DNA of 60,413 nucleotides, counting the filler. It is 6 parts of 6 records of this genome, joined end to end, with 100 filler letters (N's around TTAATTAATTAA, not from the genome) between each part and the next. Parts side by side here need not be neighbours in the genome. Positions count along the whole stretch, not along the records: positions 34,568 to 52,388 come from SRR20825006_3047; 5 more parts are not named here. One strand, given 5' to 3'. Within the stretch, counting starts at the first letter, position 1, and each line of letters begins with the position of its first letter. The notes under the pieces were generated by a model. The model saw only the letters and a program-made list of their open reading frames with translations. It did no database searches and was not told the origin of the DNA. A program made the position numbers and the translations under genes. Shown here one piece after another: positions 35,108-52,388 of the stretch.

Positions 35108-35126
35108 GGATTCTTCTCCTTTTTAA

Positions 35127-35566
35127 GAGGCTATTTCAAAACGGGGTTAGCAGAATCTGAGAAGCTGCTTCCAAGCGATGCAGAAAGCGGCGATTTGATG
35201 AAGAGCGTTCCAGGTTAAGAACTGGCGAGCATCTCGAATGCGAATCTTGCGATAGCCATCAAACCAGGCAAAGGTGCGTTCGACAGGCCAGCGCCTCTTC
35301 CCCAGGTGCTCCCCTGCGCGGCTCTTGGTGACAAACCTGGCTTCCATGTTCCTCTCGTTGACCGCCTTGTAGCAGGGCGTCACGGCATAAGCACTGTCGG
35401 CATACAGCTCCTCGAACTTGCGCTTTGGTCTCCCTCGCTTGTAACGCACTCCGCCCTCGCGCATCCTGCGCCAGCATGTGACGCCGCTGACGCCGAAGGC
35501 ATCGCTGGGGAGCATGTTCCACTGCATGCCTGTTCCGCGATGGAAGCTAAACAGTTCGAGCCCCAA
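35127..35566 (-). mobile_element. IS5-family remnant (internally deleted transposase plus right end)
   Basis: N-terminal motif GMQWNMLPSDAFGVSGVTCWRRMRE is fused to the C-terminal LYADSAY and KRRWPVERTFAWF. IS5-like end TTTTGAAATAGCCTC-TTA at 35141-35124. Confidence 0.8.
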
Positions 35567-35605
35567 GCGAACCTTCCCAGCAAGAATGTTGGTTACATGA
35601 GGCGC

Positions 35606-38600
35606 TTATCGACGACGAAAACCCAGGAGCGTTGCAAAAAATCCAAGTAGAACAATCAAAAAGGAATTGGAGTTGTGATGTGGTGCAAAACCAACGCTCG
35701 AACACGAGCGGCTTTCTAGCCCTGATTGTTCTTTCTCGGGGACTCTCCAATCCGGAAAGTCCTCGACGTACTCGATGTCTGCATCACAGGCATCATCTAT
35801 CCCATCCCTGTCGATATCTGTGGGACGCGGAGAGGCAACGGTACGACAAGAGTCGACTCCATCTTCCAGGCCATCATCATCGGAATCCGTGTCAAGCAAG
35901 TCAGGCGTGCCATCACCATCGGTATCTACAGGCATCTCCCAATCGCCGACCTCCTCCTCATCGAGGATACCATCGCCGTCATCATCATCATGGAAGGGAT
36001 CGAAACCTCGCGCCTGATCCTCGTCATCGGCTATACCGTTGCCATCCACATCACCTGCGAGTACACGGATCGTGAGTGTTCCGCTCGTGCTTTGTGAGCC
36101 ATCTGATGCCTCGAAGACCAGCTCGTGCTCCCCGAGTTGCTCGTAGGTTGGTTTCCATACCAACTCCCCTCCAAGGAATGTCACGCCTTCAGGAGGCGAC
36201 GAGACCAACCTCAGCGAGGTTGCCTCTCCGTCGACCTCGACCACCATCACGCGGTAGGACAGATGCTCCCCGGAAATCACCTCGAGTGTCTCGGGCAGGT
36301 CAGGCAATCTCGGCGCATCAGGGATCGCATCGATGGTCACATTGATCTTTGCAGGGACGGAAGCGAGGTTGGCGACCGCGCGAAACTCGAACACATCCTC
36401 GCCGTTGTAATCGGGCGAGGGCGTGTACGTGACCTGGTCACCATCGAGGATGACTTCGCCATGAAGAGGAGGTGAGGCAATTTCGAAGCGGATGGCCTGA
36501 CGTTCCTCATCGGACAAGCTCGCCGAGAGTGTGGTCGTGATTGGAGTGTCTTCGTTTGTTGTGAGCTCTTTAGCCATGACCACAGGTCGGTCTTCAACCG
36601 AAAGTACCTCGATGGTGACTACAGCGCTTTGTGAGGGCTCAAAGCCATCCAGCGCCTGGTAGGAGAATCCATCGATGCCGTGAAAATTCTCATCTGGCGT
36701 GTAGCGGAACCCGTCGGCTGTCTTTTCGAGCTTCCCGTGACCTACGTTCGAGGCGATACGAAATTCGAGAGAATCGCCATCTGCATCGCTCGCAGTGGGC
36801 ACAATCGCGAGCGATGTATCCTCGGGTGTCTCGAGACGTTCATCTTCCGTGATCGGTGCTTGGTTGGTGTTAAACAGGTAGAGTCGACCATCTTCGTCAG
36901 GATCGGATGCATCCGTCTCCCGGGTCGTCGTGATGGCGACCATACGCTTTGACACCTCGAGCGCATCAGCAATCGGACCTGCCGTACGAGGATAACTAAA
37001 CGTGAGCACCTCGCCGACATCCTCCCATCCTTCCGGCGCACCAGCATCCTCGTACAAAACATGCACGCCACCAGCCATACCCTCAAATTGGGTTTGCTGC
37101 GGTAGCAGTGGGGTTCTCGACGCGCTGGCATAAAGCGTATTTTCATCATGGACGATCCTGCGACCAAACCGAGCCATGGATAAAGGGACAGAGGAAGAAA
37201 TCCGACCAGTGTAAACCCAGGGGAAGTTGGGTGGGCCTGTTTTCTTGTAGACCTCGATATCCCCTGCAAAAAGGTCCGCGACACCCGTCGGGAATGTGCT
37301 CACATAAAGCGTATCCCCAACGAGGTGGACATCCTGTGCGAAGTAACCATCACTTTGGGGCTCCAGGATTTGTTCGAGCTGCCAACCTGCGTTGTGGCGT
37401 GCGTAGACATAGACTCTTCCAATACGATTGGTTCCATTTTGATAGTCGCCTGCCGCAACTGCGAGTTGATTCTTGGCAAGTGAAAGCCGCTTTCCAAACG
37501 ATTGCCCTGCGCGGACATCATTGGGAGTAAGCTTTGTAGATAATCCCCACGATTCTGGACCTCCTGCATCACGCTCGTAGACATAAACAGCACCCGTGGA
37601 GCTGCTGAGTTCCGAACCAACTGCGAGGACTCCGTTTTGCATTTGCAGCGCAGAAGTGCCGTAGAACCGCTCTTTTTCAAACAACTCGAGCATGGTGGAA
37701 GTGCCAGGGGAGTGGACAAGATGAAGCAGCCACTGCGCATTGACCTGCCTGTAAATCCAGACGCTCCGTGACACCGGGTCTTTGTGTACAGAGAGCGCGA
37801 GCCAATCTCCCTCTCTGGTGATGTTGTAAGCATAGATCGAGTTGGCGTGCACGAATGTGGAGGGAGGTCTGAGTTCTCCAGTTTTACCCCAGGCATTGGT
37901 TCCGCCAGCGTGACGCTCGTGGAAAAACAAAGCACCGTAACGTGGTGCGTTGGTGGCCTCTTTGTGGGCTCCGATCAGAAGCGTATCGCCATCGAGCAGG
38001 AAAGGATGACGCGACGCACGATCCCCCCACTCGGGAACCTCGATAGAAACTTGCTCGAACTGGAAAGTCGGGTCGATTTTGATGGGAAACGTTGCTCCTC
38101 GAGCATCCACCTCCAAGGTGTAGCTCACGCCCTCCGTGCATTGCATGTGCTCACGCAATGAAAACGCTGTGGGCAAGGGCCGCCCTGTATCGTCCCAAGC
38201 CTCGAGTCGATCGATCCTCAGCTTGACCCCCTGATCGTTCACCAAACGCACGACGCTTGCCGCATCCAACAGTTCTGCTGATGCAATGCCCTTGAGGCAC
38301 CAAGTCCAAGTCAGCGTTCTCCCATCGCCAACAGGCTCTTCGATGGTCAAACCGTGCTCGATCCCTCTCGAGGTGGTCTTGTACCACTCGAGCGTTTTGT
38401 CCCTCTCATAAACAACCTGTTCCCTGGAGAACACAGGCTCTACGGCACTGGATTTCTCGCCCTCCGACCCACCGATCCAGCGCGCGAAAAACAGTGGTCC
38501 GTCAGCGCTCCAAAGCCCCCAACCATCACGCCGAAAATGTGCTGACAACGCCGCATCTTCCGACGTCAACACTGGCCCATTGTATTGATCTTGCGTGGCG

Positions 38601-38680
38601 AACGTTGCTGGCTGAGACCCATCACAGGCAAACAGGCACAACGCAATGTAGGCAAATAAAGTCGTCCTCAAACATCTCAC
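35606..38680 (-). CDS. Surface protein: FG-GAP propeller, tandem Ig/cadherin-like repeats, TSP3-like Ca-binding repeats and MYXO-CTERM-like tail
   Basis: Possible lipobox LFAC; FPIKIDP; GAVYVYER/GRVYVY repeats; YTPDENFHGIDGFSY and YTPSPDYNGEDVFEF; DTDGDG/DSDDDG; tail SCSSVG...FLIVLLGFFATLLGFRRR. Confidence 0.8.
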   Translation of the reverse strand: MRCLRTTLFAYIALCLFACDGSQPATFATQDQYNGPVLTSEDAALSAHFRRDGWGLWSADGPLFFARWIGGSEGEKSSAVEPVFSREQVVYERDKTLEWYKTTSRGIEHGLTIEEPVGDGRTLTWTWCLKGIASAELLDAASVVRLVNDQGVKLRIDRLEAWDDTGRPLPTAFSLREHMQCTEGVSYTLEVDARGATFPIKIDPTFQFEQVSIEVPEWGDRASRHPFLLDGDTLLIGAHKEATNAPRYGALFFHERHAGGTNAWGKTGELRPPSTFVHANSIYAYNITREGDWLALSVHKDPVSRSVWIYRQVNAQWLLHLVHSPGTSTMLELFEKERFYGTSALQMQNGVLAVGSELSSSTGAVYVYERDAGGPESWGLSTKLTPNDVRAGQSFGKRLSLAKNQLAVAAGDYQNGTNRIGRVYVYARHNAGWQLEQILEPQSDGYFAQDVHLVGDTLYVSTFPTGVADLFAGDIEVYKKTGPPNFPWVYTGRISSSVPLSMARFGRRIVHDENTLYASASRTPLLPQQTQFEGMAGGVHVLYEDAGAPEGWEDVGEVLTFSYPRTAGPIADALEVSKRMVAITTTRETDASDPDEDGRLYLFNTNQAPITEDERLETPEDTSLAIVPTASDADGDSLEFRIASNVGHGKLEKTADGFRYTPDENFHGIDGFSYQALDGFEPSQSAVVTIEVLSVEDRPVVMAKELTTNEDTPITTTLSASLSDEERQAIRFEIASPPLHGEVILDGDQVTYTPSPDYNGEDVFEFRAVANLASVPAKINVTIDAIPDAPRLPDLPETLEVISGEHLSYRVMVVEVDGEATSLRLVSSPPEGVTFLGGELVWKPTYEQLGEHELVFEASDGSQSTSGTLTIRVLAGDVDGNGIADDEDQARGFDPFHDDDDGDGILDEEEVGDWEMPVDTDGDGTPDLLDTDSDDDGLEDGVDSCRTVASPRPTDIDRDGIDDACDADIEYVEDFPDWRVPEKEQSGLESRSCSSVGFAPHHNSNSFLIVLLGFFATLLGFRRR

Positions 38681-38719
38681 GAATTCTTCCCCGATACTTG
38701 TTTGGGAAAAGGCAGCGCA

Positions 38720-39808
38720 TCACTCGAGCAAGTCTTCGTTCGAGGAGCGCCCACAGGCGTTTTCAGGGGTGTGATACTGGCAGATGCCGTCGGTGCACGC
38801 CCTGCCTTGTTTGCAATCCGCGCTATACTCGCAAACCTCGCCATCTTCGAACGGTTGGGTGCAATAACGAGCCGAGCCACAGACGAGGTCGAGGCGGCAC
38901 TTTGATGTCTGGAAAGCACAGCCATCGAACTCTTGCAGACGCGTTTCTTCGGTCAGCCTCACACAGACAAACTCGTCTACACCTGGCTCGACGCGCTCAC
39001 AATCCAAGCCATCTGGTGCGCAACCGAAACCCTTGGAGGCATAACAAGACTCTCCCTCCAACGCACGTCTTACACAAACGCTGTCGACGCAATCCAAACC
39101 ACCACGACACGCGGGATCTGGAACATCACACGCTTCTCCGAGCTCGCGATAACGAATGCATGTGCCCAAGCGACAGTATTGGCCCCGGCCACACTCGCCA
39201 GGCGTACACGAGTCACCTGGCTTCAGCGGATCGATACAGTGGTGTTCGCAACGACTACTTCCTAACTCGGTGACCTGGTTATCGCAGTGGCCGCTCTTAC
39301 AGGCAAAGTCATGCCAACACGCTTGGCCATTCTCTCTCGAGCCGCGAATGTCACAACCTGGGGGAAGAACGCGTTGGGCATCGTAGACATCAAGGCAGCC
39401 TGCCTCTTCCCACGCCATCGTGCATTTCTGAATCGTGGCAGTATCAGTAGCAACCGCGCCGACCTCGGGTTTGACAAAGCCCCACTGGCTCAGGCGTTCG
39501 AGGCACGTCGGGATGTCCCCAAACAACAGCGTGAATCCATCAGCGTAGCACTCCTTGTAGCGCTCACACCGCGTGGTGAAGAACTCGAGCAATGCCTCGG
39601 TCTTGAGCTCTTCTTCGCTTGGTGGAGCGCCCTGATCCATATCGAGGGCCATGTCCATGGGCATATCTGGTGTGGAGGAGGACGCCATATCCGATGCTCC
39701 TGACATGTCGCTGTGAGTCGTGTCGCCATCGGAACATCCGGCCAAAACTAGCGGGAGTAAAATGAGAAACCACGAAAATATGAATTCTTCGGTATATGCA
39801 TTGCTCAA
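38720..39808 (-). CDS. Cys-rich lipoprotein (Dickkopf/EB-like repeats)
   Basis: TTG start after AGGAG, lipobox VLAGC, DM-rich linker and many GxxC...C..GLxC repeats. Confidence 0.78.
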   Translation of the reverse strand: MSNAYTEEFIFSWFLILLPLVLAGCSDGDTTHSDMSGASDMASSSTPDMPMDMALDMDQGAPPSEEELKTEALLEFFTTRCERYKECYADGFTLLFGDIPTCLERLSQWGFVKPEVGAVATDTATIQKCTMAWEEAGCLDVYDAQRVLPPGCDIRGSRENGQACWHDFACKSGHCDNQVTELGSSRCEHHCIDPLKPGDSCTPGECGRGQYCRLGTCIRYRELGEACDVPDPACRGGLDCVDSVCVRRALEGESCYASKGFGCAPDGLDCERVEPGVDEFVCVRLTEETRLQEFDGCAFQTSKCRLDLVCGSARYCTQPFEDGEVCEYSADCKQGRACTDGICQYHTPENACGRSSNEDLLE

Positions 39809-39903
39809 AACAAACTCCTGGAACCTCTTCGTAATGGGAGCGGGAGCATGAAACCGAAAAACTAAGGATTTTGCAAGAATATCATTTTCCAACCGTATCA
39901 ATT

Positions 39904-39917
39904 TTGATACTAATCAA
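39904..39917. promoter_or_regulatory. Perfect FNR-consensus palindrome in a divergent promoter
   Basis: TTGAT-ACTA-ATCAA. Confidence 0.5.
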
Positions 39918-39932
39918 GTGCATGACTTCAAG

Positions 39933-39967
39933 ATCTTCCAGTTAATTATCGCATCTTCCAGTTAATT
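39933..39967. repeat. 15-bp direct repeat ATCTTCCAGTTAATT x2 (20-bp period)
   Basis: Copies at 39933-39947 and 39953-39967. Confidence 0.85.
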
Positions 39968-39995
39968 TTTACTCTATCCATCAAGAAAAAAGTCA

Positions 39996-42900
39996 ATGAA
40001 GCAAAACATTTTTGCCCTCTGTACACTTTCACTTGTTCTCCTCGGGACATCCTGTACCGAACAACCTCAAACCAACCTAAAGACGTCAAACTCCCCCACT
40101 ACTATGGTCACGCCCACGACAATGACTCAAGCCGTTGTGGGTTCTTCATGTGAGGCCAACCTTTTTGAGCCCATCGAAGACGGATGTGAAGGAAGGTGGT
40201 CATACCGCAATCCTTCTGAATGCTATGAAGAAGCGCGTCACCCAGCGTGTGGTTATGAGCTTCTCCCTGGCAGCGGGCTCGAATGCGACGAAACCAGGGG
40301 AGTCTTTGTATCTTATGAAGATTGTTCCTCAAATATGCTTGGGGATCCCTACATTCTCTCAAATACAACCGAACTTGTCGAAGTACGGTTGGTTTCAGAG
40401 TACATGCAGGTGCTCTATGGCTCCGACTCCAACGCTGCACTCACAGATATCCAAAATATCCTCGGAGATGCCTGTGGTGCTTATGGCATAAAGGAAATCG
40501 GTGAAATCGCCAAACAATGTGCTCCTCTTGCAAGGGGGGTAGGAGAGCAGGATGAACTGGACGATTTGCTTACTTCGCTTGGGGTAATCACCAAAACACT
40601 CGATCACATCCGCGCCTGCCCTCAAGTCAGTGGAAACCCACTAAAATCACTCGAGTTCCGAGGCACAAGTGCCTACCTCGGACTTGAATGTCGTCGGCAA
40701 GAAGACGACTTCAACCGTTTGGCAAGTTGGTTGGAGCAACTTCGAGGGTGCCCGAGCAACGCTACGGAAAATCTGGTCGCTACGCTCATGAGCACTTTCT
40801 ATCAACACGTTGCTTCCAACCTCGAGGAGGTTGTCGGGCAGTATTGCACACCAGAAGCGCAACAGGGCGTGTACATCGAAATCATGGAGGCCATCGAACG
40901 TTATCTGGGTGGCGCTGGTTGGGAAGAATACATCCAGGATCAACTCGAGCTTCAATGTGAGCAAAAGTGCAGAGAGCGACTGAAATACACCAACTCGGAT
41001 GGTGAAGAAGTCTACATGCTCGATGCCGAATGTGAAACGTCAGTGGCCAATGTTACTGAGGCGAGCTCAGAAAGTGGTGCGATCTTTGCTGGCGAATGTC
41101 AGATGACGATCCGGGTGCCCGAAGAATACCAAAGCTACCTCAGTGAGAAGACGTGCCGAACGAAGGAGAATGGAGTTACGGACCCATCTGAATGTGGCGT
41201 GGACCATGCTGGAGAAGAAGTCCATTACACGGGCTTGGGTCTCGAGCGGGAGCAGGTCCTGCGCATGTATGAGGGAGAAGTTGTTCCACAGACATTGCAA
41301 TGCCTTACAGGCGACGATATCGCGGTCGACTGGACGAATGTCTCTCCCCTCGAACTTTCCGCACTGAAGTCACGTGTTCTCACCGGTTACCTTGACAGGG
41401 ATGCAACCTCCGGTGCGGACGGCGAGTCGATGAAGGACATGCTTGCTGCTCGCCTGATGCTGCTGTCAGAGTTGTACGGAGATGGCCCTCTTCACAAGGG
41501 AGAAAGCCAGGCAGACAGCAAGAACAGGGCATTCATCCTCAACACCGCTGAACTCTATGAAAGGCATCCAAATGCTCGCCCGAGTTGCGGTCCTGAGCTT
41601 GATGAGAGTGGAAATTGTAACCAGGATGGTTCGGCAACCGTCAATGTGACGGAACTATCCAACAGTTTTGCCGTTGGTCATGGGCTCAGCGAAAATTCTC
41701 TGTTTGCCTACCCGCTCGGGATCGTCTCCATCCCCTTTGGATTCCATGGATATGATTTCCTGATGCTCGATCCAACAGCTCCTTCACCAGATACACAATC
41801 AGCAGGATACGCAGAATTCGCCGTGGATCGTCCCACCACAGTGACAATCCTGTTCGACCGTGCAGGGGCAAACTACAGATCTTACCTCATCGATCAGGGT
41901 TGGGAAGTTCAGGAAGTCGCCGATCTGATCATCTTCGATATTAGCGACGGTTCCAAGGCGGCCTATTACGCAGCGACAAAGGATTTTGCCGAGTCCGCGT
42001 CTGTCATGCGAACAATCAGGGTTCCGGGACATGAAATCTCCTTCAATGGCAACCGAGATACAGACACAAAACGACCCATCATTCTCTTCCGGGCCATGGA
42101 TATCGAAGCTGTTGTCGACATGTGTCATCGCTATACCGACGAGCAGATTCTCGCTGGAATGGACTCCAATTTCCATCATCCCATTGTGGCGCGCTGTGCA
42201 TCGAGGTTCGATACGGGGCTTGATGCCTCGAGCGAGATGGATGCTCGAGCGGGGGTAACCGCTTGTACGGACTTTGCAGCTCAACATGCTGCTGAAGATG
42301 TTTCGGAGATACTTGCGTTTGATGTTCCACTCCGATCGAATGTCATCGTTCCTGCCGACAGCAATATCCCTCCAGGAAATGCCGCAAAACTCGACCAGCA
42401 AGTTTTGCGTTTGAACAATTGGGTCAAGAGTGTTGAAGGACATGCAACGCCAACGGAAGTTTACCTGGGGGCAACTGAGGTAACCGGTGCAATTCACGGA
42501 AGCCTAGGAAGCGTGCTTCCTTTTGCTAGTGATGTGATGGATCCTACAGATCCTCAAAAATCGACGCGAGATGCTCTGCAAATGCGTTATAGAGGCATTA
42601 TTGATTCTGCCCAAGATATGGACCTCACAATTTTGTTAAGTAAGTGGCAATATGATATCCATGCCGAACTACTTAAATCTACGCAACGCATTAATTCATC
42701 GGATTACCTAAGGACCATGGTAACGCAAGATGCAATTGAAATTCTTGTGTCCAAAATCGATTCTTATTCAGACTTGTTTGATATAGGATGTGCCTTGTCC
42801 CCAACCTGTGGTCGTGACTCTAATACAGGTTACCTTCACGAAACCTCTATAACTAAAGTCTGGAGACTCTTTCAGACGTTACTTGATGACAGCGCAGATA

Positions 42901-45629
42901 ACACCTACTGGAATTCATCAGATTCCGATTCGATTTTCAGTATAGCTAATGACAACAGTTTTAAGTCCAAAAACAAGGAAGCAATAAACTTACTCGTTTT
43001 GATTGGAAGCGAGCGTGATAATTTAAAAAGTTATGTGTCCTTGAAAACAGGAATCAGTGCAGCTCAACTGAGTGATGGAGAAAGTTCTTTCATTTTTCAA
43101 AATGCTCCAGAGATTCAAAAAATCTATGCAGCGATTAAACGCGCCGACATGAGGCGTTCAAATTATGCTCTAAACAACGCAATGAAGAGCAAAGATATTG
43201 AAGTTCGTACAGGACTCGACCATTATAATATATTTGCTCCTGACGATGGTATTGTTGATGTAATGTTACAAGAAGCCAATGATGCAGAAGTTGAACTCAA
43301 CATATACATGTCAGAAAGAATTCAACATCAACGAGAACGTTTGCAATACTACGACAACAATCAACAGATTACTATATTAGAAAACCAGGTCAAAAATACA
43401 GCGGATGAGATTGGTTATCAGTTAGAAAGATTAACAACATTAAGGCGTTTATTGCTTTCACCTCAAGAGAGGAAATCTGAATATCTTGCTGAGATTGCTG
43501 ACTTATCAACGAACTCGACTTTCATCAATCATTTGGGATTTTTAACAACCCGATCAGCACCTTTGATCGCTGAAATTAGTAGCGACTCAGCTAAACTTGT
43601 TGGAGATGTAAATGCTTTAACTAGCCTTTCGACTCTTGGTGTGGATTGGGATCAAACCCAAGGCTCTGAACTATCAGTAACTAAAGGCTCATTTGTTACA
43701 CTTGACATTTCGGGTGAGTATGCTCCTGATTGTGCCATTAGAGTATTTGAGTCCGACCTGAATTTGAATCCTAATATAACTTATCCTTTGGTCACAGATG
43801 CACAAGGTTTTCGTACAACAACAAACTCAGGTTATTATGAAGTCGAAAGCGTTTCTAAGTCAGAATCTTCAGGGGTCAATAACTCTGGCTCTCAGCAGGC
43901 GTGTGCTGGTGTTGGAGCAGAGATCAATGTTTTGAAACTGGGTATCGATTTTTGCCTCAACTCAGCTGTATATAATAACAATGACACAACGACTTCAAAT
44001 AACACAGGAAATGAGTTTAGATACTCTGCATCGTTTGTTGAAGGTCTACGTGTTGAGAGTCATGTGCCCTTCCCGGAGTTTCCAGTTGGTAGCTTGATCC
44101 TGGTTGGCGCTGAATCAGACATATCTTCTCCTAATCTTAGTAACGTGTCTTTCAAACGTGTTCTTTCAAACGGACAAACAGCTTTCATTGCTCCGAAGAA
44201 CCTTCGTCTTTATCTTGTTCTAAACGACCAATCTCATAGCCATCAGCTTTGTGGTAATACCTCTTCCTCGAATGGATATGTGCTAAATGTAAATACGAAT
44301 TATTTTGAAAATATCAGCGGAGATGGTAGCAAAGTTGTTGCAGATGAAATGATAGCTTCTTTTGCGGATGCCCATGAGTTAATGGATAACATTGCAGAAA
44401 CAGACACTATTTTGTCAACACAGTTAAATTCGCTTAGGCTTTCTATTCGTAACAGGTTTTACAATCGTTTCGGTGGAGAAAGTTCAGTACCAGAGGGTCT
44501 TCGCCTTCTCTTTGTAGATTGGCTTGAACAAGAGCTAGCATCTATCGAATTGAGGGTTCTTATCGAACAACAAATAAAAGCAATTCTCGTAACAAAGCAA
44601 GAACTTGACCTTTTAGAGTTGCAGATTTCAGGAAAAAGTGATCGCAATGGTTATCTTGAGAAAATCCTATCCTTAAGTGAAGAGAGATTTTTTCAACGGG
44701 GCTTTTTCTCGAAGGTTCAACATTTAGCTTTTCATATCAACTACTATGTCATGCCATTGTTATGGTTGAAATTCGGAGAAGACATTCATGGTTTTAGTAA
44801 CGTTGATTTGCAGTACTTGGAGGCTTTAACCAACACACCAAATAGTATTTCATCAGTTGAACTGACGAATGTCCTTACAACGCTTTTTGGCAGTAATTCT
44901 CGTCTTTATAATAGGATCAATGATCTTAAAAACAACAATTCCGGACCCTCTACAAACTGGGTTGCTCTTTACTACCCTAAATCTGAACTTTCTGTTACCA
45001 GTCAAGTAGCAAGTGTTAAGGATAGTATTAGAACATCTAATCCTTGGAGTAGTTTGGGTGACTTTTCAAATCATGACGAAATGATAAAACTGGAAGTTGC
45101 CCCGGAAGATTTGTATTTAGGAGATAGCAACATGGGGTACCATTTTGTACTTTCGTGTAACAAGGTTGAACCGATTTTGTTAGACATGGCCATACTCTTT
45201 GTTGCAGAAGGCGTTCAGTACACAGAGATTGGAACTCCGGCTAATCAAGAACTTCCGATCAGCTTTGAAAGTCAAATGACATTTGCTAGAGCAAATGAAC
45301 CACGCGATTATTTTATGAATAATTCCACCTATCAAGGTGCACTGGTTAAGACTGGTTTTATTCGAGATATAAATATAAGTAGTGCAAACCCGGATTCTTG
45401 GATGCCGGTACGAGAACCGGGCGATTTTCCTCCGGGTCGAGGTCTTTCACCGTTTATGACGGTGATGCTTAGTGAATCTTTTATTTATAGTAATCTTTTT
45501 CAGGGTAGTGCAGATCAAGCTGCATTAGACTTTTATAATGATATAGATGGGATTCTGTTGTTCCTGAAAATTCAGGGTGAGACAACTCCCCTAAATGCGG
45601 GGATTTCGTGGATTCCTGAGTGCCTATGA
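39996..45629 (+). CDS. 1877-aa lipoprotein of unknown family; putative TcA-analogous translocator
   Basis: Lipobox LLGTSC, Cys-rich N-terminus, two coiled-coil tracts flanking a Ser/Thr-rich hairpin, and C-terminal PGRGLSPF. The CDS is secure; the function is inferred. Confidence 0.8.
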   Translation: MKQNIFALCTLSLVLLGTSCTEQPQTNLKTSNSPTTMVTPTTMTQAVVGSSCEANLFEPIEDGCEGRWSYRNPSECYEEARHPACGYELLPGSGLECDETRGVFVSYEDCSSNMLGDPYILSNTTELVEVRLVSEYMQVLYGSDSNAALTDIQNILGDACGAYGIKEIGEIAKQCAPLARGVGEQDELDDLLTSLGVITKTLDHIRACPQVSGNPLKSLEFRGTSAYLGLECRRQEDDFNRLASWLEQLRGCPSNATENLVATLMSTFYQHVASNLEEVVGQYCTPEAQQGVYIEIMEAIERYLGGAGWEEYIQDQLELQCEQKCRERLKYTNSDGEEVYMLDAECETSVANVTEASSESGAIFAGECQMTIRVPEEYQSYLSEKTCRTKENGVTDPSECGVDHAGEEVHYTGLGLEREQVLRMYEGEVVPQTLQCLTGDDIAVDWTNVSPLELSALKSRVLTGYLDRDATSGADGESMKDMLAARLMLLSELYGDGPLHKGESQADSKNRAFILNTAELYERHPNARPSCGPELDESGNCNQDGSATVNVTELSNSFAVGHGLSENSLFAYPLGIVSIPFGFHGYDFLMLDPTAPSPDTQSAGYAEFAVDRPTTVTILFDRAGANYRSYLIDQGWEVQEVADLIIFDISDGSKAAYYAATKDFAESASVMRTIRVPGHEISFNGNRDTDTKRPIILFRAMDIEAVVDMCHRYTDEQILAGMDSNFHHPIVARCASRFDTGLDASSEMDARAGVTACTDFAAQHAAEDVSEILAFDVPLRSNVIVPADSNIPPGNAAKLDQQVLRLNNWVKSVEGHATPTEVYLGATEVTGAIHGSLGSVLPFASDVMDPTDPQKSTRDALQMRYRGIIDSAQDMDLTILLSKWQYDIHAELLKSTQRINSSDYLRTMVTQDAIEILVSKIDSYSDLFDIGCALSPTCGRDSNTGYLHETSITKVWRLFQTLLDDSADNTYWNSSDSDSIFSIANDNSFKSKNKEAINLLVLIGSERDNLKSYVSLKTGISAAQLSDGESSFIFQNAPEIQKIYAAIKRADMRRSNYALNNAMKSKDIEVRTGLDHYNIFAPDDGIVDVMLQEANDAEVELNIYMSERIQHQRERLQYYDNNQQITILENQVKNTADEIGYQLERLTTLRRLLLSPQERKSEYLAEIADLSTNSTFINHLGFLTTRSAPLIAEISSDSAKLVGDVNALTSLSTLGVDWDQTQGSELSVTKGSFVTLDISGEYAPDCAIRVFESDLNLNPNITYPLVTDAQGFRTTTNSGYYEVESVSKSESSGVNNSGSQQACAGVGAEINVLKLGIDFCLNSAVYNNNDTTTSNNTGNEFRYSASFVEGLRVESHVPFPEFPVGSLILVGAESDISSPNLSNVSFKRVLSNGQTAFIAPKNLRLYLVLNDQSHSHQLCGNTSSSNGYVLNVNTNYFENISGDGSKVVADEMIASFADAHELMDNIAETDTILSTQLNSLRLSIRNRFYNRFGGESSVPEGLRLLFVDWLEQELASIELRVLIEQQIKAILVTKQELDLLELQISGKSDRNGYLEKILSLSEERFFQRGFFSKVQHLAFHINYYVMPLLWLKFGEDIHGFSNVDLQYLEALTNTPNSISSVELTNVLTTLFGSNSRLYNRINDLKNNNSGPSTNWVALYYPKSELSVTSQVASVKDSIRTSNPWSSLGDFSNHDEMIKLEVAPEDLYLGDSNMGYHFVLSCNKVEPILLDMAILFVAEGVQYTEIGTPANQELPISFESQMTFARANEPRDYFMNNSTYQGALVKTGFIRDINISSANPDSWMPVREPGDFPPGRGLSPFMTVMLSESFIYSNLFQGSADQAALDFYNDIDGILLFLKIQGETTPLNAGISWIPECL

Positions 45630-45696
45630 CTAATTAATTCCTTTTTCAACAAAAACAGATAGCCTTAAAACCAATTAAACACGGCCGAGAGTTATT

Positions 45697-48600
45697 ATGA
45701 AAAAGAACGAGATAATTTTAAGCAAAATCATTGCTTTTTTATCATTCAGCAGTCCAACTTTAGTTTTTGCACAGACCGCATCAGATATGTTGATCCAGCC
45801 TCCCGAGCTTTCTGCACCAGAGCGGGGTTCAGTAGCGGGCCAATATTCAGGATTGGTATTCGAGCCGGGCCAGATGAGCCGCGGTGACTTCTCACTCTCA
45901 CTCCCCATAAATGTCCCACAAGATCGGGGGACACTTATGGCATCTATTTTCCCCTCTTATTCACCTGGTTCAGGCCTGAGTGAATGGGGGATTGGCTGGC
46001 AAGCGCCTCTCGAGATCAAACGGGCAACGTTTGACGGTCAAATTGACTACGTTACTGATCATTTCGTTTCTCCCTGGGGTCGTCTGATCGAAGGCTCAAA
46101 TGGTGACTATTACCCTGCGGGAATGACCTCATCCATACGCATTTCTCCTGTGGGAGATGAATTTCATGCGTACATGCCAGATGGCTCGGTTGCTATCTTT
46201 GGACGAACAAGTCAAAACAACTCAACGCGTATCGAAACCTCGCAAGGGATCTACGCCTGGTATCTGACGTCAATAGAGGACATTCATGGAGCACGGACCG
46301 AACTGAAATACACCGCGAACACCTCGGGAAGGCCTTTTCTAGAAGAGGTTTTCTATGGCGGGCATGGTCAGGATTTTCAGTACAGAGTGCGGTTCCATTA
46401 TGACGCATTGACGGTTGCCATCCCTGACTATTCATCAGGAAAAAAGTTAGATCTCGATCAACGCATTAGCAGCGTCTCGGTTGACACAAAAGACTCTGGA
46501 GCTTTTTCAAATCGTTGGCACTATCCCATTGCCCACGCATTCTTCACCGAAAGTCCCTCATTCTTCCTCACTTCGATTGAAAGGCATGTAGAGTCATCTG
46601 GGGAGTTCGAGATACTTGCCACCTATGAATACGATGATGTTACGCAGTACTGGCAAAATGCCGTTGCCGTCCCCAGTACCAAGGCCAAGCAACTAATCGA
46701 TAACTGGGGAGACTCTGTATATGAGCCAGATCAATCCACTCCGCTGGATGGGAACGATGATGGAATGATCGATCTGGAGTACAAGGCTAGCTTCTCCCTC
46801 ATCAAACAAACCTCATCCGGGTTTGTCGAAGAACCTCTCGGTCCAGTCACAGCTGCGCTTCATGAGGAGTGTCGTCCAGACAATGCCCCCATCAGTTCAC
46901 GAGATCCTCGTCTACTCGTGAAGGTGCGTGGCAGTGATTTTGAAACCGAAGTGCTCGTTGTCGAACCCAACGCTATGGGAGGTGAATCGGGGAAGATCGT
47001 TGTCTGTAAGCGAAATGGCGATCTGGTGGAAATGACCGACGAGCTGGATTGGATCGATGGTTTTGACAGACACACGCGAGTTGTTGACCTGAACAATGAC
47101 AACCGACCCGATATCGTACATTTGAAAGGCGATGGTGAGCTGGTCATTTATGAGAACCTGAGCACACCAACCACCATCGATTTCCAAGCACTCGGAACCA
47201 ATCAGGATCTCGGGTCGATCAATGCCCTCTTCTCAGGTGGTTTTTGGGGCCGTGATATCAACGGCGATGGTATCGTCGATATTGTCACTCGCGAATCGAA
47301 CCGCATTTTCGTCTGGTACGGAAAGGGAAACCTGACGTTCGAAGCTTCACCTGAACAAATCGATTTCAACAGTTTCGCAACACCGCCAATTTTGACCAAT
47401 ATGGAGGTGTTGTTCATCGATGCAAACAAAGACGGTTTGCCTGATGCTCTTGTAAAAGATCCCACCGCGTATGCTGGCGCGAGGATGTTCATCAACGGGC
47501 TTTCAGAATTCAGCGAAATCGACATCCCCAATCTTTATTCTGCGACCAGCCAAGTCATGCCATCAACCCTCGACCTGATTGGCTCAGGGAACGCCCAGGT
47601 TGTTTTCCTGGAACAAGCGGCAGGCTCCTCAGGAGGGGCCGTAGTCAAGGTATTTGAACTCCATCAAGCGTCTACAGGCTTGATGCGCCAAACCTATGAC
47701 GCGCGAGGAACAACCTTACAGTTTGACTATGGCCGGGCTCCTGCCGTCGATGGTGTCGAGCAACGCCATGCTGTTCTCACCGGGATGCAACACGAATCTC
47801 AGGGCTATGACACCGTTGCATACACCTATGACTACTCACAACCTATCCTTCACAATGAGGGGCATCTGCTTGGTTACCGAGAGGTCTCCCGCGTCGGGCC
47901 ACGAGAGACACACTTGGCGAGCTTCATTATCGAGCATGATATTCCACCGGTATTGGAAGATTCGGTCACTCAAGATCACGAGATTCCAGATCTCTTCAAG
48001 CTCAACGCTACTTCCTACAGCCACGAAACCTACAACGGTGTTTCATGGTTCAGGCCCGCCACCGAAATTTCTGGAATCTATCATGCATCGCTGACAGACC
48101 AGCAAACAACCACAACAGAATACCTCGCCTATGATGACCTCTGTCCGGTCGAGACAAGGACCATCAAATCCTCTGGCGAACTCAGAACGCAAATCGAGCT
48201 GGCCTCACCTTCCGAACTCGCATCATCACTGCACTGTCTACCTGACGAAATCGTAACGATCGGTACACATCCCGGAAATTCGTCTTACGATTTCGAATAC
48301 ACCGCTCTGGTTTCAAGGAACTCCAAGGGACAAACCACACAAATCACAGCTTACGATCCGGGCACGAGTTACGTTCTACAGGAAATCACCTACGACACCC
48401 TGGGTCGTCTCGCTACCGTGTCCTCTCCTGGTAAGGGAACATCGAGCATGTTCTACGATGGAGATTACAATATCTCGGAAATCGAGGGCCCCAATGGGGT
48501 CATCGTCGAGGCGACACGAGAATCTGTCAGCGATCTGCTAGTAAGCCTGGATGAACATCGCCCGGGCATGACCTACAGCATCGAATCCGGTTTCGACGGT

Positions 48601-51600
48601 CTCGAGCGACTTGAACGCCGCTGGGACAGCCTCGGTCTCTCCAGTGAGTTGGATCCTTTGATCCGATTCCAATACCAGTACGCCACAGAAACCGATCCTG
48701 CAGTGGTCGAGACGTGGACCAAGGCCGATAATGGTGGTGCCCAGATGCACACGTCCGAACTCTTCACGGCGGGTGGAGATCCGTTGCTCTCGGCCGTGAA
48801 GCTCGGAACGGAGTTTCGATATGGGACGTCTCACTCTTACAACCGCAACGATGGTTCGAGCACGAGCTATCGAGTCACCGATGATAACGGTATCAACCCT
48901 GCAGATCTCGCAAACATGAACATCGTGGCAGAGCGTGCGTTGGCATTCGAGAAGAGCTCCGCTTTCGGGGAAGTGATCGACTCGTGGTCCGAACACCACG
49001 ATAACGTTCAAACCCACATGTCGACAGATTTGCAACTCTCCGGGGGAAGACTTCTTGTCAGGGCTCACGAAAACGGGATCCATGAAAAAGTAAATGTCGT
49101 GGATGACAGTGGCAACACTGTCATGCTCCAGGACGAGATCGGAACGCGATTCTCGTACACCTATGACACTCTGGATCGAATGCGCCGTGCCGATTACCCG
49201 GATCGTCGTTTTCAAACCGTGACCTATGACAGCCTTGGACGCTTACAAGAGGTCTACCGAGACAACTATGGACGTCAAGTCCACGAGTATGACAGCTCTG
49301 TGTTCGAGCAAATCACGAGAACTACACTCTTTGATCGAAACGATGTTGCTCGCTATCAAATTGATTTTTCATACGACGCGATCGGTCGCATGACCCAACG
49401 GGTCCATGAAGATTTGCAAACGGGTGATCTGGCGACATACACATTTTATTACGATGGCGCCACACCTGATAACCCCACCGCAAGCGTGGGCGCATACCTG
49501 GGAAGGCAGACAGGTATCGAAGGACCTGGCTATCAGAAAACAGTGGAGTACCGAGATGATGGTTCGATCCTGTCCAACACCACAACATTTCCAAATATCC
49601 TGAGTTTCACGACTCTGTTCGATTATGCGCCCGATGGCTCGATCCAAAGCACAGCGGTGCTCTGGCAAGATGCTCAGGGTCAGACTGTTTTCAAGCAAAG
49701 TGTCTCGAACGAAGTCGATGCTGATGGGTTCTCGAGCAACGTTTATCTCGGCCGCCAACACCTCGCTCGTGTCTACTACGATGATGAGGGCTTGCTGCGT
49801 CGCGTGGGTTTTGCTGACGATCCAAACCAAACAGCCAACAACGGTTCAACTGATATCAGTGACATCATTCATGACCAACTCGATACCAATGATGTTCTCA
49901 ACGAGTATGGGTACGTTTGGGATCGCGAACAAGAGGTGCTCTTCCACTACGATTCAGACACTCACAAGCCGTTGGGTCTCACGCAACGTTGGGCAGGTTG
50001 GGAGAGGAGCAACACACGTCGCTTCAACGACAGAGGTTCAGTGGACTACGAGGACTTTGGTCTCTCCACATCAACCACCAAACGACGACACTACACCTAT
50101 GGCCCAAGAAACTTCCTGAGCGCGGCCTGGGATCCTCAAGAGGATTGGATTTATGAATACGATGCTTTTGGTCTTATCGAAGAAGCGAGCGTCAATGGTC
50201 AGTCCGAAGGTACTAGCCGAGTACCCGGTGAGTATTGGCAAACTAACCAGGTCGAATATGACTTTGACGCTTTGGGCCGCGTGATCGAGCGTTCGAACTC
50301 TCACCCCATGATCTTTGCATATGGCCCACACGGCCACCTGTCTACGGCTGAAGATCAGCAGACGGGTGATGAGTGGACGTTTGTCTACGATGAGCAGGGT
50401 CAACGCATCATGAAGTTCGAGAATGGGCAGCCTGACAAAGCCTACCTTGGCGATCTTTACCTCGATGTAGCAGGTCAGGATCTTATACAACCGTTCGAGA
50501 TCAACGAACGTATCGTCGGGATGATTTACAACGGTAACTTTGAAATGTTGCCACTGGGAGAAACTGAATCACTGTTGGGGGACTCATACGGCAACGAAAG
50601 TCTTGTTGCTCCGTATGGAGCTCGTGATCGAAGTACAACCGTTGCTCAAAATCTCCAATATGTCGAAGAAGCCATCGCATTTGTCGCCAGAGGTTACGAT
50701 GCGGACACAGGACTTGTCCGAATGGGAGTTCGTGATTTTGCTCCCGACATTCGAACCTTCACCACCCCAGATCCTCTTTTCCTTGGTAACATAAGCTCTA
50801 ACTTGAGTTCATACGATGCAAACCTCTACACATACGCCCGAAATAATCCCATCACAGTCGTTGATCCCCTGGGCCTGTGTGACTGCCAGTTCACATCTAT
50901 AGAAGGCAGAGAATATCAGGGCAGCGTCGGCGCGACCAAAAAGAACTACTCAGAAGAAGAACTCGGTCAACAAAACATGGCTCTTGCAGGAGGGGCCATG
51001 GTTACTCCTTATGCTGGAGACTACGTCGTCGCCGCACATTCCTGGTATGTCTACGCAAACTATCCAAACGGGATAAATCTGGCGGCGGCAATGGCGGATT
51101 CGGGTGCAGCTGTTTTGCCTATACTACCTGCTGGCGCTGCTGCTGCTGCCGGTGCCGCCAGGACGGTGAAGTCGGCGGGTAAGAGCACCGCGACAACCGC
51201 AGCATCCAAAACCGCGAAAAATACAGTTGCAAAGAAATCGTCCACGAAAACGGCCAGTAAAGTCTCCAAAACCTGCAGTTTCACTGCAGGAACTGTCGTG
51301 CTCATGTGTGATGGCACTTACAAAAACATCGAGGACGTGGAAGAAGGAGACTGGGTTCTCTCACGTGATGAACATGGGGATGAGTATGCTTGCAAGCAAG
51401 CCGTAAAACCGTATTCGAATCCTGATCGTTCGATCATCATACTGGAATTTGAAGACGAAGACGGTCAGATCGAGTTCATTGAAACTACCGACAATCATCC
51501 TTTCTATGTTTCAGGACGTGGTTGGACCAGAGTTGATGAGCTCAACCTCCTCGATCAAGTGCCAAGCTCTGATGGTCGGACGCTTACTGTCAAAAGCGCA

Positions 51601-52026
51601 TTATGGACTCAACGCATCGCAGTTGTTTATAACTTTGGTGTTGAAGACTTTCATACCTACTTTGTGGGTGAGATTGGCGCTTGGGTTCACAATTGCGACT
51701 TTAACTGGGACCATATATTTGACAGACACACCCCGGGTGGCAGCACTGCCTCGCAACGCGCTCGAGGTGGTGGTCCACAAAATTCGCTTTTTGTAGGTTT
51801 CTCCCAAGAGCAAATCAAAAAAATAGTTAAGGATGCTTGGAAACATGCCGAAAAAAAAGGTGGCAAACAAATAGATTTTGCAACAGGTCATGAGACCCAA
51901 AAATTTAGAGGTTTTAATGAGAAGTATAATATGGAAATTGAATTTTGGTATAATCACACCACAAAAAGGGTGGACAGTGCATATCCGGCAGATAGTCAAG
52001 TCTTGGTGAATCCTTATCCAAAATAA
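45697..52026 (+). CDS. SpvB/TcB-like + FG-GAP + RHS/YD + HINT polymorphic toxin (TcB-TcC fusion type) with signal peptide
   Basis: Signal-like LVFA|QT; SpvB motif SLPINVPQDRG...YSPGSGLSEWGIGW; DLNNDNRPD/DINGDGIVD/DANKDGLPD; YDxLGR repeats; RHS end YARNNPITVVDPLGL; HINT CSFTAGT...VHNC. Confidence 0.9.
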   Translation: MKKNEIILSKIIAFLSFSSPTLVFAQTASDMLIQPPELSAPERGSVAGQYSGLVFEPGQMSRGDFSLSLPINVPQDRGTLMASIFPSYSPGSGLSEWGIGWQAPLEIKRATFDGQIDYVTDHFVSPWGRLIEGSNGDYYPAGMTSSIRISPVGDEFHAYMPDGSVAIFGRTSQNNSTRIETSQGIYAWYLTSIEDIHGARTELKYTANTSGRPFLEEVFYGGHGQDFQYRVRFHYDALTVAIPDYSSGKKLDLDQRISSVSVDTKDSGAFSNRWHYPIAHAFFTESPSFFLTSIERHVESSGEFEILATYEYDDVTQYWQNAVAVPSTKAKQLIDNWGDSVYEPDQSTPLDGNDDGMIDLEYKASFSLIKQTSSGFVEEPLGPVTAALHEECRPDNAPISSRDPRLLVKVRGSDFETEVLVVEPNAMGGESGKIVVCKRNGDLVEMTDELDWIDGFDRHTRVVDLNNDNRPDIVHLKGDGELVIYENLSTPTTIDFQALGTNQDLGSINALFSGGFWGRDINGDGIVDIVTRESNRIFVWYGKGNLTFEASPEQIDFNSFATPPILTNMEVLFIDANKDGLPDALVKDPTAYAGARMFINGLSEFSEIDIPNLYSATSQVMPSTLDLIGSGNAQVVFLEQAAGSSGGAVVKVFELHQASTGLMRQTYDARGTTLQFDYGRAPAVDGVEQRHAVLTGMQHESQGYDTVAYTYDYSQPILHNEGHLLGYREVSRVGPRETHLASFIIEHDIPPVLEDSVTQDHEIPDLFKLNATSYSHETYNGVSWFRPATEISGIYHASLTDQQTTTTEYLAYDDLCPVETRTIKSSGELRTQIELASPSELASSLHCLPDEIVTIGTHPGNSSYDFEYTALVSRNSKGQTTQITAYDPGTSYVLQEITYDTLGRLATVSSPGKGTSSMFYDGDYNISEIEGPNGVIVEATRESVSDLLVSLDEHRPGMTYSIESGFDGLERLERRWDSLGLSSELDPLIRFQYQYATETDPAVVETWTKADNGGAQMHTSELFTAGGDPLLSAVKLGTEFRYGTSHSYNRNDGSSTSYRVTDDNGINPADLANMNIVAERALAFEKSSAFGEVIDSWSEHHDNVQTHMSTDLQLSGGRLLVRAHENGIHEKVNVVDDSGNTVMLQDEIGTRFSYTYDTLDRMRRADYPDRRFQTVTYDSLGRLQEVYRDNYGRQVHEYDSSVFEQITRTTLFDRNDVARYQIDFSYDAIGRMTQRVHEDLQTGDLATYTFYYDGATPDNPTASVGAYLGRQTGIEGPGYQKTVEYRDDGSILSNTTTFPNILSFTTLFDYAPDGSIQSTAVLWQDAQGQTVFKQSVSNEVDADGFSSNVYLGRQHLARVYYDDEGLLRRVGFADDPNQTANNGSTDISDIIHDQLDTNDVLNEYGYVWDREQEVLFHYDSDTHKPLGLTQRWAGWERSNTRRFNDRGSVDYEDFGLSTSTTKRRHYTYGPRNFLSAAWDPQEDWIYEYDAFGLIEEASVNGQSEGTSRVPGEYWQTNQVEYDFDALGRVIERSNSHPMIFAYGPHGHLSTAEDQQTGDEWTFVYDEQGQRIMKFENGQPDKAYLGDLYLDVAGQDLIQPFEINERIVGMIYNGNFEMLPLGETESLLGDSYGNESLVAPYGARDRSTTVAQNLQYVEEAIAFVARGYDADTGLVRMGVRDFAPDIRTFTTPDPLFLGNISSNLSSYDANLYTYARNNPITVVDPLGLCDCQFTSIEGREYQGSVGATKKNYSEEELGQQNMALAGGAMVTPYAGDYVVAAHSWYVYANYPNGINLAAAMADSGAAVLPILPAGAAAAAGAARTVKSAGKSTATTAASKTAKNTVAKKSSTKTASKVSKTCSFTAGTVVLMCDGTYKNIEDVEEGDWVLSRDEHGDEYACKQAVKPYSNPDRSIIILEFEDEDGQIEFIETTDNHPFYVSGRGWTRVDELNLLDQVPSSDGRTLTVKSALWTQRIAVVYNFGVEDFHTYFVGEIGAWVHNCDFNWDHIFDRHTPGGSTASQRARGGGPQNSLFVGFSQEQIKKIVKDAWKHAEKKGGKQIDFATGHETQKFRGFNEKYNMEIEFWYNHTTKRVDSAYPADSQVLVNPYPK
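51274..51693 (+). other. Pretoxin HINT autoprocessing domain
   Basis: Motifs CSFTAGTVV, IEDVEEGDWV, TTDNHPFYV and VYNFGVEDFHTYFVG..WVHN. Confidence 0.9.
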
Positions 52027-52032
52027 GCAATG

Positions 52033-52064
52033 TAGGAAGAATTGTAATAATTCAAGTCTTCCTA
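52033..52064 (+). terminator. Hairpin immediately after the toxin gene (possible terminator)
   Basis: TAGGAAGA...TCTTCCTA inverted repeat with an inner TTG/CAA pairing; no T-tract. Confidence 0.4.
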
Positions 52065-52154
52065 GTCCCTGAAGAAGAAGCCAGCAAGAAGACGTGTGGT
52101 GCGAGAGGAGGGAGAAGGTGTGAGAATGGAGGAGAATACAGGCCCCTTATCCAC

Positions 52155-52388
52155 TGTCCGGGGCCTGATTCTCCTTCATTCGAGACAACTTCGAGCCCTC
52201 GAGCACGACGCCAACGCTGGAGACAGACATGAGCACGGATTTACCTGACGAGATCAAGCGATGGACGGCAAAGAGGCGCACCGCCCTGGTCCTCGAACTT
52301 CTGCGCGGAGAGACCACGGTCCATGAGGCCGCGCAAGCACGACCTCAAGCCCGCGGACATCGAGCACTGGAAGGAGACCTTCCTGGCC
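52155..52388 (+). mobile_element. IS3-family element left end with frameshifted orfA (truncated)
   Basis: Begins TGTCCGGGG; orfA from 52229 reads IKRWTAKRRTALVLELLRGETTVHEAA and continues KHDLKPADIEHWKETFLA in another frame. Confidence 0.75.

Follow-up and report, generated by a model that had tools for sequence, protein, structure and literature searches.

The stretch of DNA considered here, called the window and 60,413 nucleotides (nt) in length, carries two giant co-oriented genes which, as stated in the original prediction, lie 67 nt apart on the + strand. Gene 1 (39996..45629, +) is an open reading frame (ORF) for a predicted lipoprotein of 1877 amino acids (aa) that belongs to an unnamed family and ends in a TcA-like C-terminal module, and gene 2 (45697..52026, +) is a single ORF for a 2109-aa RHS polymorphic toxin of the TcB-TcC type with a Sec signal. 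On balance, we lean towards the view that these genes constitute a two-gene system resembling the Tc toxins, in which a lipoprotein-anchored, TcA-like docking and translocation subunit would be combined with a TcB-TcC-type cocoon. The pair is not confined to the window, being widespread, though unannotated, among Myxococcota and some Oligoflexia-type predators.

Gene 1 begins with MKQNIFALCTLSLVLLGTSC, and its residues 1-20 (39996..40055, +) have the features of a lipoprotein signal peptide, ending in LLGTSC with Cys20; the lipobox that had been noticed here is present, though looser than the canonical form, L-[AS]-[GA]-C. Most of the 34 cysteines of the protein fall within the first 760 residues, in an N-terminal half (40143..42500, +, delimited by identity profile and GC content) that is Cys-rich, varies between lineages and includes the motif CEGRWSY. 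The C-terminal module (residues 860-1877; 42573..45626, +) is conserved and forms the core of the family, the family profile spanning residues 804-1876. A metagenomic relative, P0004, is more than 90% identical to gene 1 over residues 43-800 and about 45% identical from residue 850 on, and between about 42400 and 42600 (residues ~800-870) the GC content drops sharply from 0.51 to 0.40 and below. Since the identity break of P0004 coincides with the GC break near nt 42500, gene 1 is a mosaic: recombination with a low-GC allele seems to have replaced its TcA-like rear module, whereas gene 2 and its relative are still 90% identical.

The structure of residues 860-1877 was predicted by AlphaFold from an alignment of 83 sequences (predicted local distance difference test, pLDDT, 80.5; predicted template modelling score, pTM, 0.61), an earlier model from two sequences being unusable (pLDDT 29.8). 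The coiled-coil/hairpin/coiled-coil region with a terminal domain, first proposed from the sequence, appears in this model as two very long helices that flank a beta domain and are followed by an alpha/beta domain. After a helical region (residues 860-1080), long helix 1 (residues 1086-1172, 87 residues; 43251..43511, +; H227-313 of the model) aligns with the first TcA channel helix. At the tip of the hairpin, the model places a beta-sandwich with a lectin fold like that of LecA/PA-IL (residues 1182-1439; 43539..44312, +), which holds a low-confidence Ser/Thr-rich loop (1276-1348) between the conserved Cys1303 and Cys1320. Two shorter helices lead from the beta-sandwich to long helix 2 (residues 1500-1565, 66 residues; 44493..44690, +; H641-706 of the model), which is antiparallel to helix 1, and further helices precede the C-terminal alpha/beta domain (residues 1652-1863; 44949..45584, +; 793-1004 of the model), found at the position of the TcB-binding domain.

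When this model was compared with the PDB by Foldseek, all 17 counted matches at an expectation value (E) <=1e-3 were TcA chains (TcdA1, XptA2 and YenA2), and TcdA4, XptA1 and TcaA-TcaB ranked just below this set. The top match, 6l7e_A (E 6e-5, probability 1.00), extended over about 480-510 aligned columns, and the alignment runs from position 208 of the model onward against TcdA1 2011-2516, the pore-forming and TcB-binding region, reaching the last residue (2516/2516). Because only TcA chains are returned at this threshold, the possibility that gene 1 matches a known unrelated family is ruled against, and the proposal that it is a divergent or non-homologous TcA equivalent finds support both in the fold and in the gene linkage described below. 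The long helical hairpin and the C-terminal domain, standing beside a TcB-type front end in gene 2, suggest a TcA-like role for the rear module, namely that of a dock for the cocoon and a conduit for the toxin.

The features first noticed in gene 2 (a signal, SpvB motif, FG-GAP repeats, YD shell, DPLGL, hydrophobic linker, HINT and a tip of about 110 aa) were all recovered by family and sequence scans. The N-terminus is signal-peptide-like (residues 1-25, ...LVFA/QT; 45697..45771, +; hydrophobic window 5-25), and the family consensus retains the hydrophobic start, followed by AQ. It is followed by an SpvB/TcB motif (residues 62-118; 45880..46050, +; PF03534, 25.9 bits for a cut-off of 22) and by an FG-GAP beta-propeller region (residues ~345-655; 46729..47661, +), the borders of which are estimated from DxDxDG-like repeats and within which FG-GAP_3 (PF13517) matches residues 520-586 (E 6e-12). 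The RHS/YD shell (47662..50877, +) ends in an Rhs core (TIGR03696, residues 1639-1727, E 9e-14; the YD repeat is also matched) and in the DPLGL autoproteolysis motif (residues 1723-1727; nt 50863-50877, +). Beyond the shell lie a hydrophobic Ala/Gly-rich linker (residues 1792-1821; 51070..51159, +), a PT-HINT (pretoxin HINT) domain (residues 1870-1999; 51304..51693, +; PF07591, E 1e-23; 2lwy_A, E 1.8e-13) and the toxin tip (residues 2000-2109; 51694..52023, +). With a profile of 15 members of the gene 2 family, the N-terminus matched YenB (E 1.4e-9), TcdB1 (E 5.6e-7) and SpvB (E 3.5e-4), the FG-GAP part matched the PVL propeller lectin (E 7.7e-6), and the remainder matched teneurin-like and Rhs shells with E down to 5e-30 (9pt5_A best).

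The tip itself gave no match in Pfam at E<=10 or among PDB sequences. An Atlas feature search ranked EndoU_bacteria clusters first (0.94, 195 shared features, 21/30 matches), which serves as a lead only, and the tip shows an H-x4-R-H stretch; on the Atlas lead, it is possibly an EndoU-type RNase (PF14436; catalytic His/His/Lys). The variability of the tips among relatives, expected from the original prediction, was confirmed in two ways. A relative of gene 2, P0005, is 90% identical to it from residue 408 to 1725 and unrelated past the DPLG motif, which is the mark of a polymorphic toxin, and a scan of the last 450 residues of 27 gene 2 relatives yielded one NucA/NucB DNase, one Tox-REase-7, one glutamine deamidase, two PT-HINT domains and one Stv adhesin domain; four gave shell-only matches and 15 nothing recognisable, so that 19 of the 27 had no match to a toxin, HINT or adhesin family in this part. 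A small co-oriented ORF is found at or just past the stop of the gene 2 relative at 26 of 27 loci, in several cases with a 4-nt overlap, and these ORFs would fit the layout expected for immunity genes, though DNA of high GC content often contains spurious ORFs.

When the rear halves of gene 1 and P0004 were used in an exhaustive profile search, 272 representative clusters were returned at E<=1e-3, 184 of them at E<=1e-10. A word-index search with the whole of gene 1, in which P0004 was the single relative among 7998 scored candidates, is misleading when set against these 272 clusters, and a two-sequence alignment of gene 1 and P0004, used as a query, found no relatives in metagenome or genome contigs. 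Members of the family range from 1100 to 2100 aa, and most have 1400-1900 aa and are matched across their last ~1000 residues; where public records give a name, it is 'hypothetical protein' or 'PA14 domain-containing protein'. Their front halves vary, with PA14 in three and FG-GAP in one of 24 relatives scanned, and the front half of gene 1 is probably ligand-binding. Conservation, by contrast, peaks in the hairpin and the C-terminal domain and not in these ligand-binding parts. A lipoprotein-type signal, that is a hydrophobic run followed by Cys, was recognised by eye in about 38 of 47 full-length relatives, three others having ordinary signal peptides and six being unresolved; strict regular expressions caught the lipobox in only 21/47 and 17/47. 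Behind the signal, 31 of the 47 show a CxGxWxY motif, of which CEGRWSY is the form in gene 1. The family occurs in 27 of 201 Myxococcota genomes (34 matches), roughly one in seven, and in 6 of 131 genomes of the phylum that contains the Oligoflexus locus, where the relatives are open frames of 1084-1161 codons that barely exceed the core module.

The two genes were found to travel together whichever of them was used as the seed. Using gene 2, with one genome per species, we collected 68 loci, nearly all from Myxococcota, with three from Oligoflexia and one partial actinobacterial hit, and 58 of them contain a gene 1 relative as detected by the iterated gene 1 core profile. Six of the 68 are unassessable, having no upstream DNA or a match to the rear of gene 2 only; at 53 of the 62 assessable loci a same-strand gene 1 relative lies upstream and ends no more than 379 nt before the gene 2 match. 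Two loci have the relative farther away on the upstream side (7.6 kb in L020; 1.9 kb in L041, with an FGE-sulfatase-like ORF in between), three are differently arranged (downstream in L012, a fragment in L016, divergent in L046) and four have none: L024 and L032, with unrelated upstream genes, and L059 and L063, the upstream ORFs of which (1.1-1.2 kaa, thousand aa) belong to no family and gave no link to the gene 1 profile by hhalign. Starting instead from gene 1 in the 201 Myxococcota genomes, 29 of the 34 matches have a co-oriented gene 2 relative downstream: 23 show its N-terminus inside the 1.5-kb downstream flank, and longer flanks revealed six more full co-oriented relatives, four of them separated from the gene 1 match by an additional ORF or by a gap of at most 3.3 kb. 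The exceptions are one gene 2 fragment, one divergent arrangement and three matches without a gene 2 relative. In five genomes reached through the loci, a gene 2 relative follows six of seven gene 1 matches, and the seventh is the first of tandem gene 1 copies. The linkage of gene 1 to SpvB-RHS genes, on which the original prediction depended, therefore holds in both directions (53/62 and 29/34). The pair is present in Myxococcus, Corallococcus, Pyxidicoccus, Archangium and Sorangium strains, many of them culturable.

Several loci depart from the simple arrangement. In L105 (1021-9006, -; genome G188), one of the three matches without a gene 2 relative, what comes after the gene 1 relative is no RHS gene but one for a subtilase/MAM/Ig-domain protein of 2662 aa. 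Tandem gene 1 relatives (50-4555 and 4833-9854) stand before one gene 2 relative in L033, and L016 and L012 contain back-to-back cassettes; from their sequences, these arrangements suggest that cassettes are duplicated locally and turned over. The pairs that diverge most, those of the small-genome relatives G128 and G059, have an ORF of about 520 aa separating the relatives of the two genes (L107:4298-5872 and L109:9034-10587); it combines a P-loop match of GTPase-like type (MMR_HSR1) with a coiled-coil tail and could encode a third component.

A number of results weigh against a TcA-like reading of gene 1. The fold match is moderate, with Foldseek TM-scores of 0.12-0.19 and a root-mean-square deviation above 20 A, and the sole single-domain match of the C-terminal domain is weak (6l7i_A, a 179-aa piece of TcdA1; TM 0.41, E 0.23). 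At the level of sequence, gene 1 as a whole has no match in Pfam, NCBIfam or PDB sequence searches, and when cut into five pieces it gave only noise in Pfam at E<=10. The family profile gave coiled-coil noise and no TcA among PDB sequences, hhalign of the family with the C-terminal regions of seven canonical myxobacterial TcA proteins returned a probability of 0.9%, and none of the 24 relatives scanned matched a TcA family. Pfam found no TcA shell, Ig-like receptor-binding domain or neuraminidase-like family in gene 1, and the 260-aa beta domain occupies the position of the short hydrophobic tip loop by which TcA enters the membrane. The family PF18276 (TcA_TcB_BD) is above its cut-off in 10 of the 201 Myxococcota genomes and never at gene 1 relatives. 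Gene 2 of the window is not followed by an immunity-like ORF before the 53-codon ORF fragment that ends the contig. Finally, should P0004 and P0005 derive from a single locus, the divergence of the rear module (~45% identity) would far exceed that of the gene 2 propeller (96-98%), which would be a poor fit to tight co-adaptation between the two.

The canonical TcA_TcB_BD proteins were found at L116-L123 (genomes G189, G192, G088, G199, G110, G017, G073 and G157) with E down to 1e-119, in frames of 1100-4000 codons, and both G157 and G189 hold PF18276 proteins and, elsewhere, members of the gene 1 family. As the former sit apart from gene 1 relatives, bona fide TcA homologues coexist with the gene 1 family and are distinct from it. 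An Atlas lead, a Myxococcota cluster with 13% of members carrying TcA_TcB_BD (score 0.82), was given up, direct tests with that Pfam family being negative. We also dropped as unsupported the idea that loop 1276-1348 is the amphipathic hairpin of a beta-pore-former: its period-2 hydrophobic moment ranks just 7th among the windows of the module, and a match to Vip4Da1 at the loop has an E of 7.8. A complex prediction in which residues 1649-1877 of gene 1, in triplicate, were combined with residues 345-655 of gene 2 (a partial ring, run with no alignments) scored 0.00 against a mark of 0.34 and is weightless either way.

As judged from the model, the likeness of gene 1 to TcA is one of architecture and fold, and either very remote homology or convergence could account for it. 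A more sceptical explanation would be that it is a coincidence of coiled coils and that the two genes share an operon without any physical interaction of their products. Every sequence and profile test against TcA was indeed negative; yet the two genes stay adjacent in different Myxococcota orders and in Oligoflexia-type genomes, hence in two phyla, at 20-45% protein identity, which points to a joint function and makes it very likely, and we consider mere coincidence highly improbable.

What this joint function might be can be read in another manner, in which gene 1 encodes a surface tether and adhesin that forms no channel: it would hold the cocoon at the outer membrane of the producer and bind the target by its lectin-like and variable domains, and the toxin would enter otherwise, for example by means of the hydrophobic linker and HINT of gene 2 or of target proteins, as in contact-dependent inhibition (CDI) or WapA. 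A lipobox, a lectin-like tip domain and the PA14 or FG-GAP inserts of relatives would all suit such a protein, many adhesins and Smc-type proteins are likewise built as a globular head on a coiled-coil stalk, the hydrophobic tip loop of TcA is missing from gene 1 and gene 2 has a hydrophobic stretch of its own; the conserved pairing fits equally well, and surface display with CDI-like delivery has been proposed for myxobacterial Rhs proteins in the passages drawn on here of a 2023 review (PMC10433427). Nevertheless, the fold search at E<=1e-3 picks no adhesin beside the TcA chains, the TcA alignment goes beyond the stalk and takes in the C-terminal domain to its last residue, and, as described above, it is not in the ligand-binding parts that the family is best conserved. 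We regard a tether without a channel as rather unlikely.

The strict co-orientation, the short intergenic gaps and the Sec-type signals on both proteins would also be expected if gene 1 encoded a helper in the export or assembly of the 230-kDa cocoon of gene 2, moving or holding it at the outer membrane or acting as a periplasmic chaperone, and not itself delivered. To our knowledge, there is no outer-membrane route for a Sec-exported RHS cocoon in Gram-negative bacteria, and this counts in favour of such a helper. Searches of Pfam, NCBIfam, PDB sequences and folds, however, gave no likeness to secretins, TpsB, Slam-type exporters or chaperones, and variable, receptor-like front halves (PA14, FG-GAP) better suit a protein that faces a target, so that a helper role appears improbable.

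Returning to a lipid-anchored TcA-like subunit with its cocoon, the following sequence of events can be proposed. Both proteins would be exported by Sec, and the gene 1 protein would be anchored by its lipid in the outer membrane, where its C-terminal domains may assemble into an oligomeric funnel on which the gene 2 cocoon docks by its propeller. Upon contact with a neighbour, delivery in vesicles or outer-membrane exchange, the tip domain of gene 1 would engage the target envelope and the helical conduit would conduct the unfolded toxin over one membrane; after delivery by any of these routes only one membrane would be left to cross. For this pair we thus infer binding, oligomeric state, pore formation, cellular location and target. 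The small co-oriented ORFs downstream and those tips that can be named, of nuclease or deamidase type, point to bacterial targets, in kin discrimination or predation, and the pair is probably used against bacteria. The lipid anchor and Sec signals, the lack of a recognisable TcA shell, the lectin-like tip and the PT-HINT, taken with the immunity-like ORFs and nuclease tips, argue for the same targets and for delivery by contact, vesicles or outer-membrane exchange. More tentatively, and as a possibility that we would not yet call probable, the pair may represent a second, unrecognised branch of Tc-type injectors in the predatory, social Myxococcota and Oligoflexia, with a lipid-anchored A component, a lectin-like conduit end and a Sec-exported B-C cocoon, which would reach a neighbouring cell through contact, vesicles or outer-membrane exchange and inject its toxin from the periplasmic side across the inner membrane of the target. 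Such a branch would be the missing delivery route of those myxobacterial Rhs toxins that depend on neither a type VI secretion system (T6SS) nor exchange, and might possibly serve predation too.

The window is made up of six unrelated or unordered contigs, between which five linkers of the form N44-TTAATTAATTAA-N44 (12578-12677, 20739-20838, 28638-28737, 34468-34567 and 52389-52488) carry stops in all six frames. It was therefore wrong to view it as a single contig, and gene neighbourhood across the linkers of such a pseudomolecule is meaningless; the gene pair lies on a 17.8-kb piece (34568..52388, unstranded; delimited by N runs and linker motifs, and by the sequence at the 3' junction). The observation that no T6SS or holin/endolysin genes are visible on the contig stands for these 17.8 kb, a scope that makes it little informative. 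A TPR-rich giant of 1984 aa (52495-58449, +; GC 0.65) is on a different contig and is no neighbour of the toxin pair.

Upstream of gene 1 and divergent from it, a Cys-rich ORF of 393 aa (38720-39901, -) has as its sole match a faint one to the Cys-rich repeats of TraA, the outer-membrane exchange receptor (E 6e-4, far below cut-off). Next to it lies a 1024-aa surface protein with cadherin, FG-GAP and Big_9 domains in family scans (35606-38680, -), the tail of which (Cys, a hydrophobic run and RRR) has weak NCBIfam matches to MYXO-CTERM (myxosortase) substrates; this tail and these matches suggest a Myxococcota origin for the contig. A fragment of an IS5-family transposase (35147..35566, -; NF033580, E 9e-17, positions 168-258 of 258) marks the far side of the island. 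Downstream of gene 2, the ORF fragment of 53 codons (52229..52388, +), cut by the contig end, has no family match, and presumably resembles the N-terminus of an IS3-type OrfA. The GC content is 0.52-0.59 in the flank; within gene 1 it is 0.49-0.55 in the front half and 0.37-0.40 in the rear half, and gene 2 has 0.48-0.56, its toxin tip 0.43 and the next contig 0.65. This profile, together with the flanking insertion sequence (IS) remnants, makes the gene pair look like an acquired island. A scan for promoters and terminators was uninformative, shuffled controls giving more sites.

Among known systems, the bacterial teneurin-like proteins (TLPs) are described, in the parts of the report used here (PMC13018210), as Myxococcota-enriched, Sec- or signal peptidase II (SPII)-targeted RHS/YD shells around a variable toxin, with an immunity gene downstream. 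They consist of one polypeptide with an FN-plug and an NHL propeller and with their own lipid anchor and adhesion domains, as far as the same parts tell (PMC13018210; Raoelijaona et al. 2026). The shell profile of gene 2 scores best against TLP structures (9pt5_A, as above), but the plug side of gene 2 is TcB-like, with an SpvB motif and an FG-GAP propeller, its N-terminus matches TcB and not TLPs, and neither NHL nor FN-plug was seen in it by Pfam. In the gene pair, moreover, it is a second protein, the conserved partner with its TcA-like rear module, that would provide anchor and adhesion.

According to the passages of the 2023 review drawn on here, large signal-peptide Rhs proteins drive kin discrimination in myxobacteria independently of T6SS and of outer-membrane exchange; their surface display and CDI-like delivery are only presumed there, and those passages name no partner protein (PMC10433427). 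Rhs4 and Rhs5 of Myxococcus xanthus, as described in them, share with gene 2 a signal peptide and a polymorphic C-terminal toxin and are often on mobile elements, just as IS fragments flank the low-GC island that carries the gene pair; they are of about 4000 aa, no TcA-like partner is mentioned in these passages, and the likeness to gene 2 is drawn from their description (PMC10433427). SitA is the lipid-anchored part of a myxobacterial polymorphic toxin system delivered by outer-membrane exchange (PMC5562445), which makes the transfer of lipoproteins between cells a plausible route. By contrast with the gene pair, the lipid anchor of SitA is on the toxin, and it has neither an RHS cocoon nor a TcA-like module (PMC5562445), and we found no homology between SitA and the gene pair.

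In the full-text literature, with supplementary tables outside its scope, our search found no paper describing a TcA-like lipoprotein partner of myxobacterial SpvB-RHS genes. The main text of Song et al. 2021 (PMC7861908) contains neither 'Myxococc' nor 'lipoprotein', and its supplementary locus tables, like those of PMC13018210, might list such loci. If the proposed system is real, the delivery of large signal-peptide myxobacterial Rhs toxins without T6SS or outer-membrane exchange, as outlined in the cited passages of PMC10433427, would become testable. A function would also be gained for a family of ~1500-residue proteins now called 'hypothetical' or 'PA14 domain-containing', and a tip domain in place of the TcA membrane loop would be a mechanistic question in itself.

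The closest comparison is with the Tc (ABC) toxins of Photorhabdus, Xenorhabdus and Yersinia (TcdA1/TcdB2-TccC3 and YenA/YenB/YenC). These are known as pentameric syringes, soluble and released by lysis, of pathogens of insects and humans, and their principle of injection would have a wider known range if it extended to a relative that has a lipid anchor, depends on Sec and is aimed at bacteria. The gene order is the same, A then B/C, and gene 2 shares with the Tc toxins the TcB N-terminal motif, the propeller, the RHS cocoon, the DPxGL autoprotease motif and the exchangeable C-terminal toxin, while the pore-forming and TcB-binding region of TcA aligns by fold with the modelled rear 800 residues of gene 1. 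There are also differences. TcA has about 2500 aa as against 1877 aa in gene 1, and it carries a hydrophobic loop at the tip where the model of gene 1 has a lectin-like beta domain. Canonical Tc subunits are not known to have signal peptides and are released by lysis, in contrast to the lipoprotein signal of gene 1 and the Sec signal of gene 2. TcB and TcC are separate proteins in the Tc toxins and are fused in gene 2, which, unlike them, places a PT-HINT module ahead of the toxin. Lastly, the targets of Tc toxins are insects, whereas the immunity-like ORFs and nuclease-type tips of the gene pair point to bacteria.

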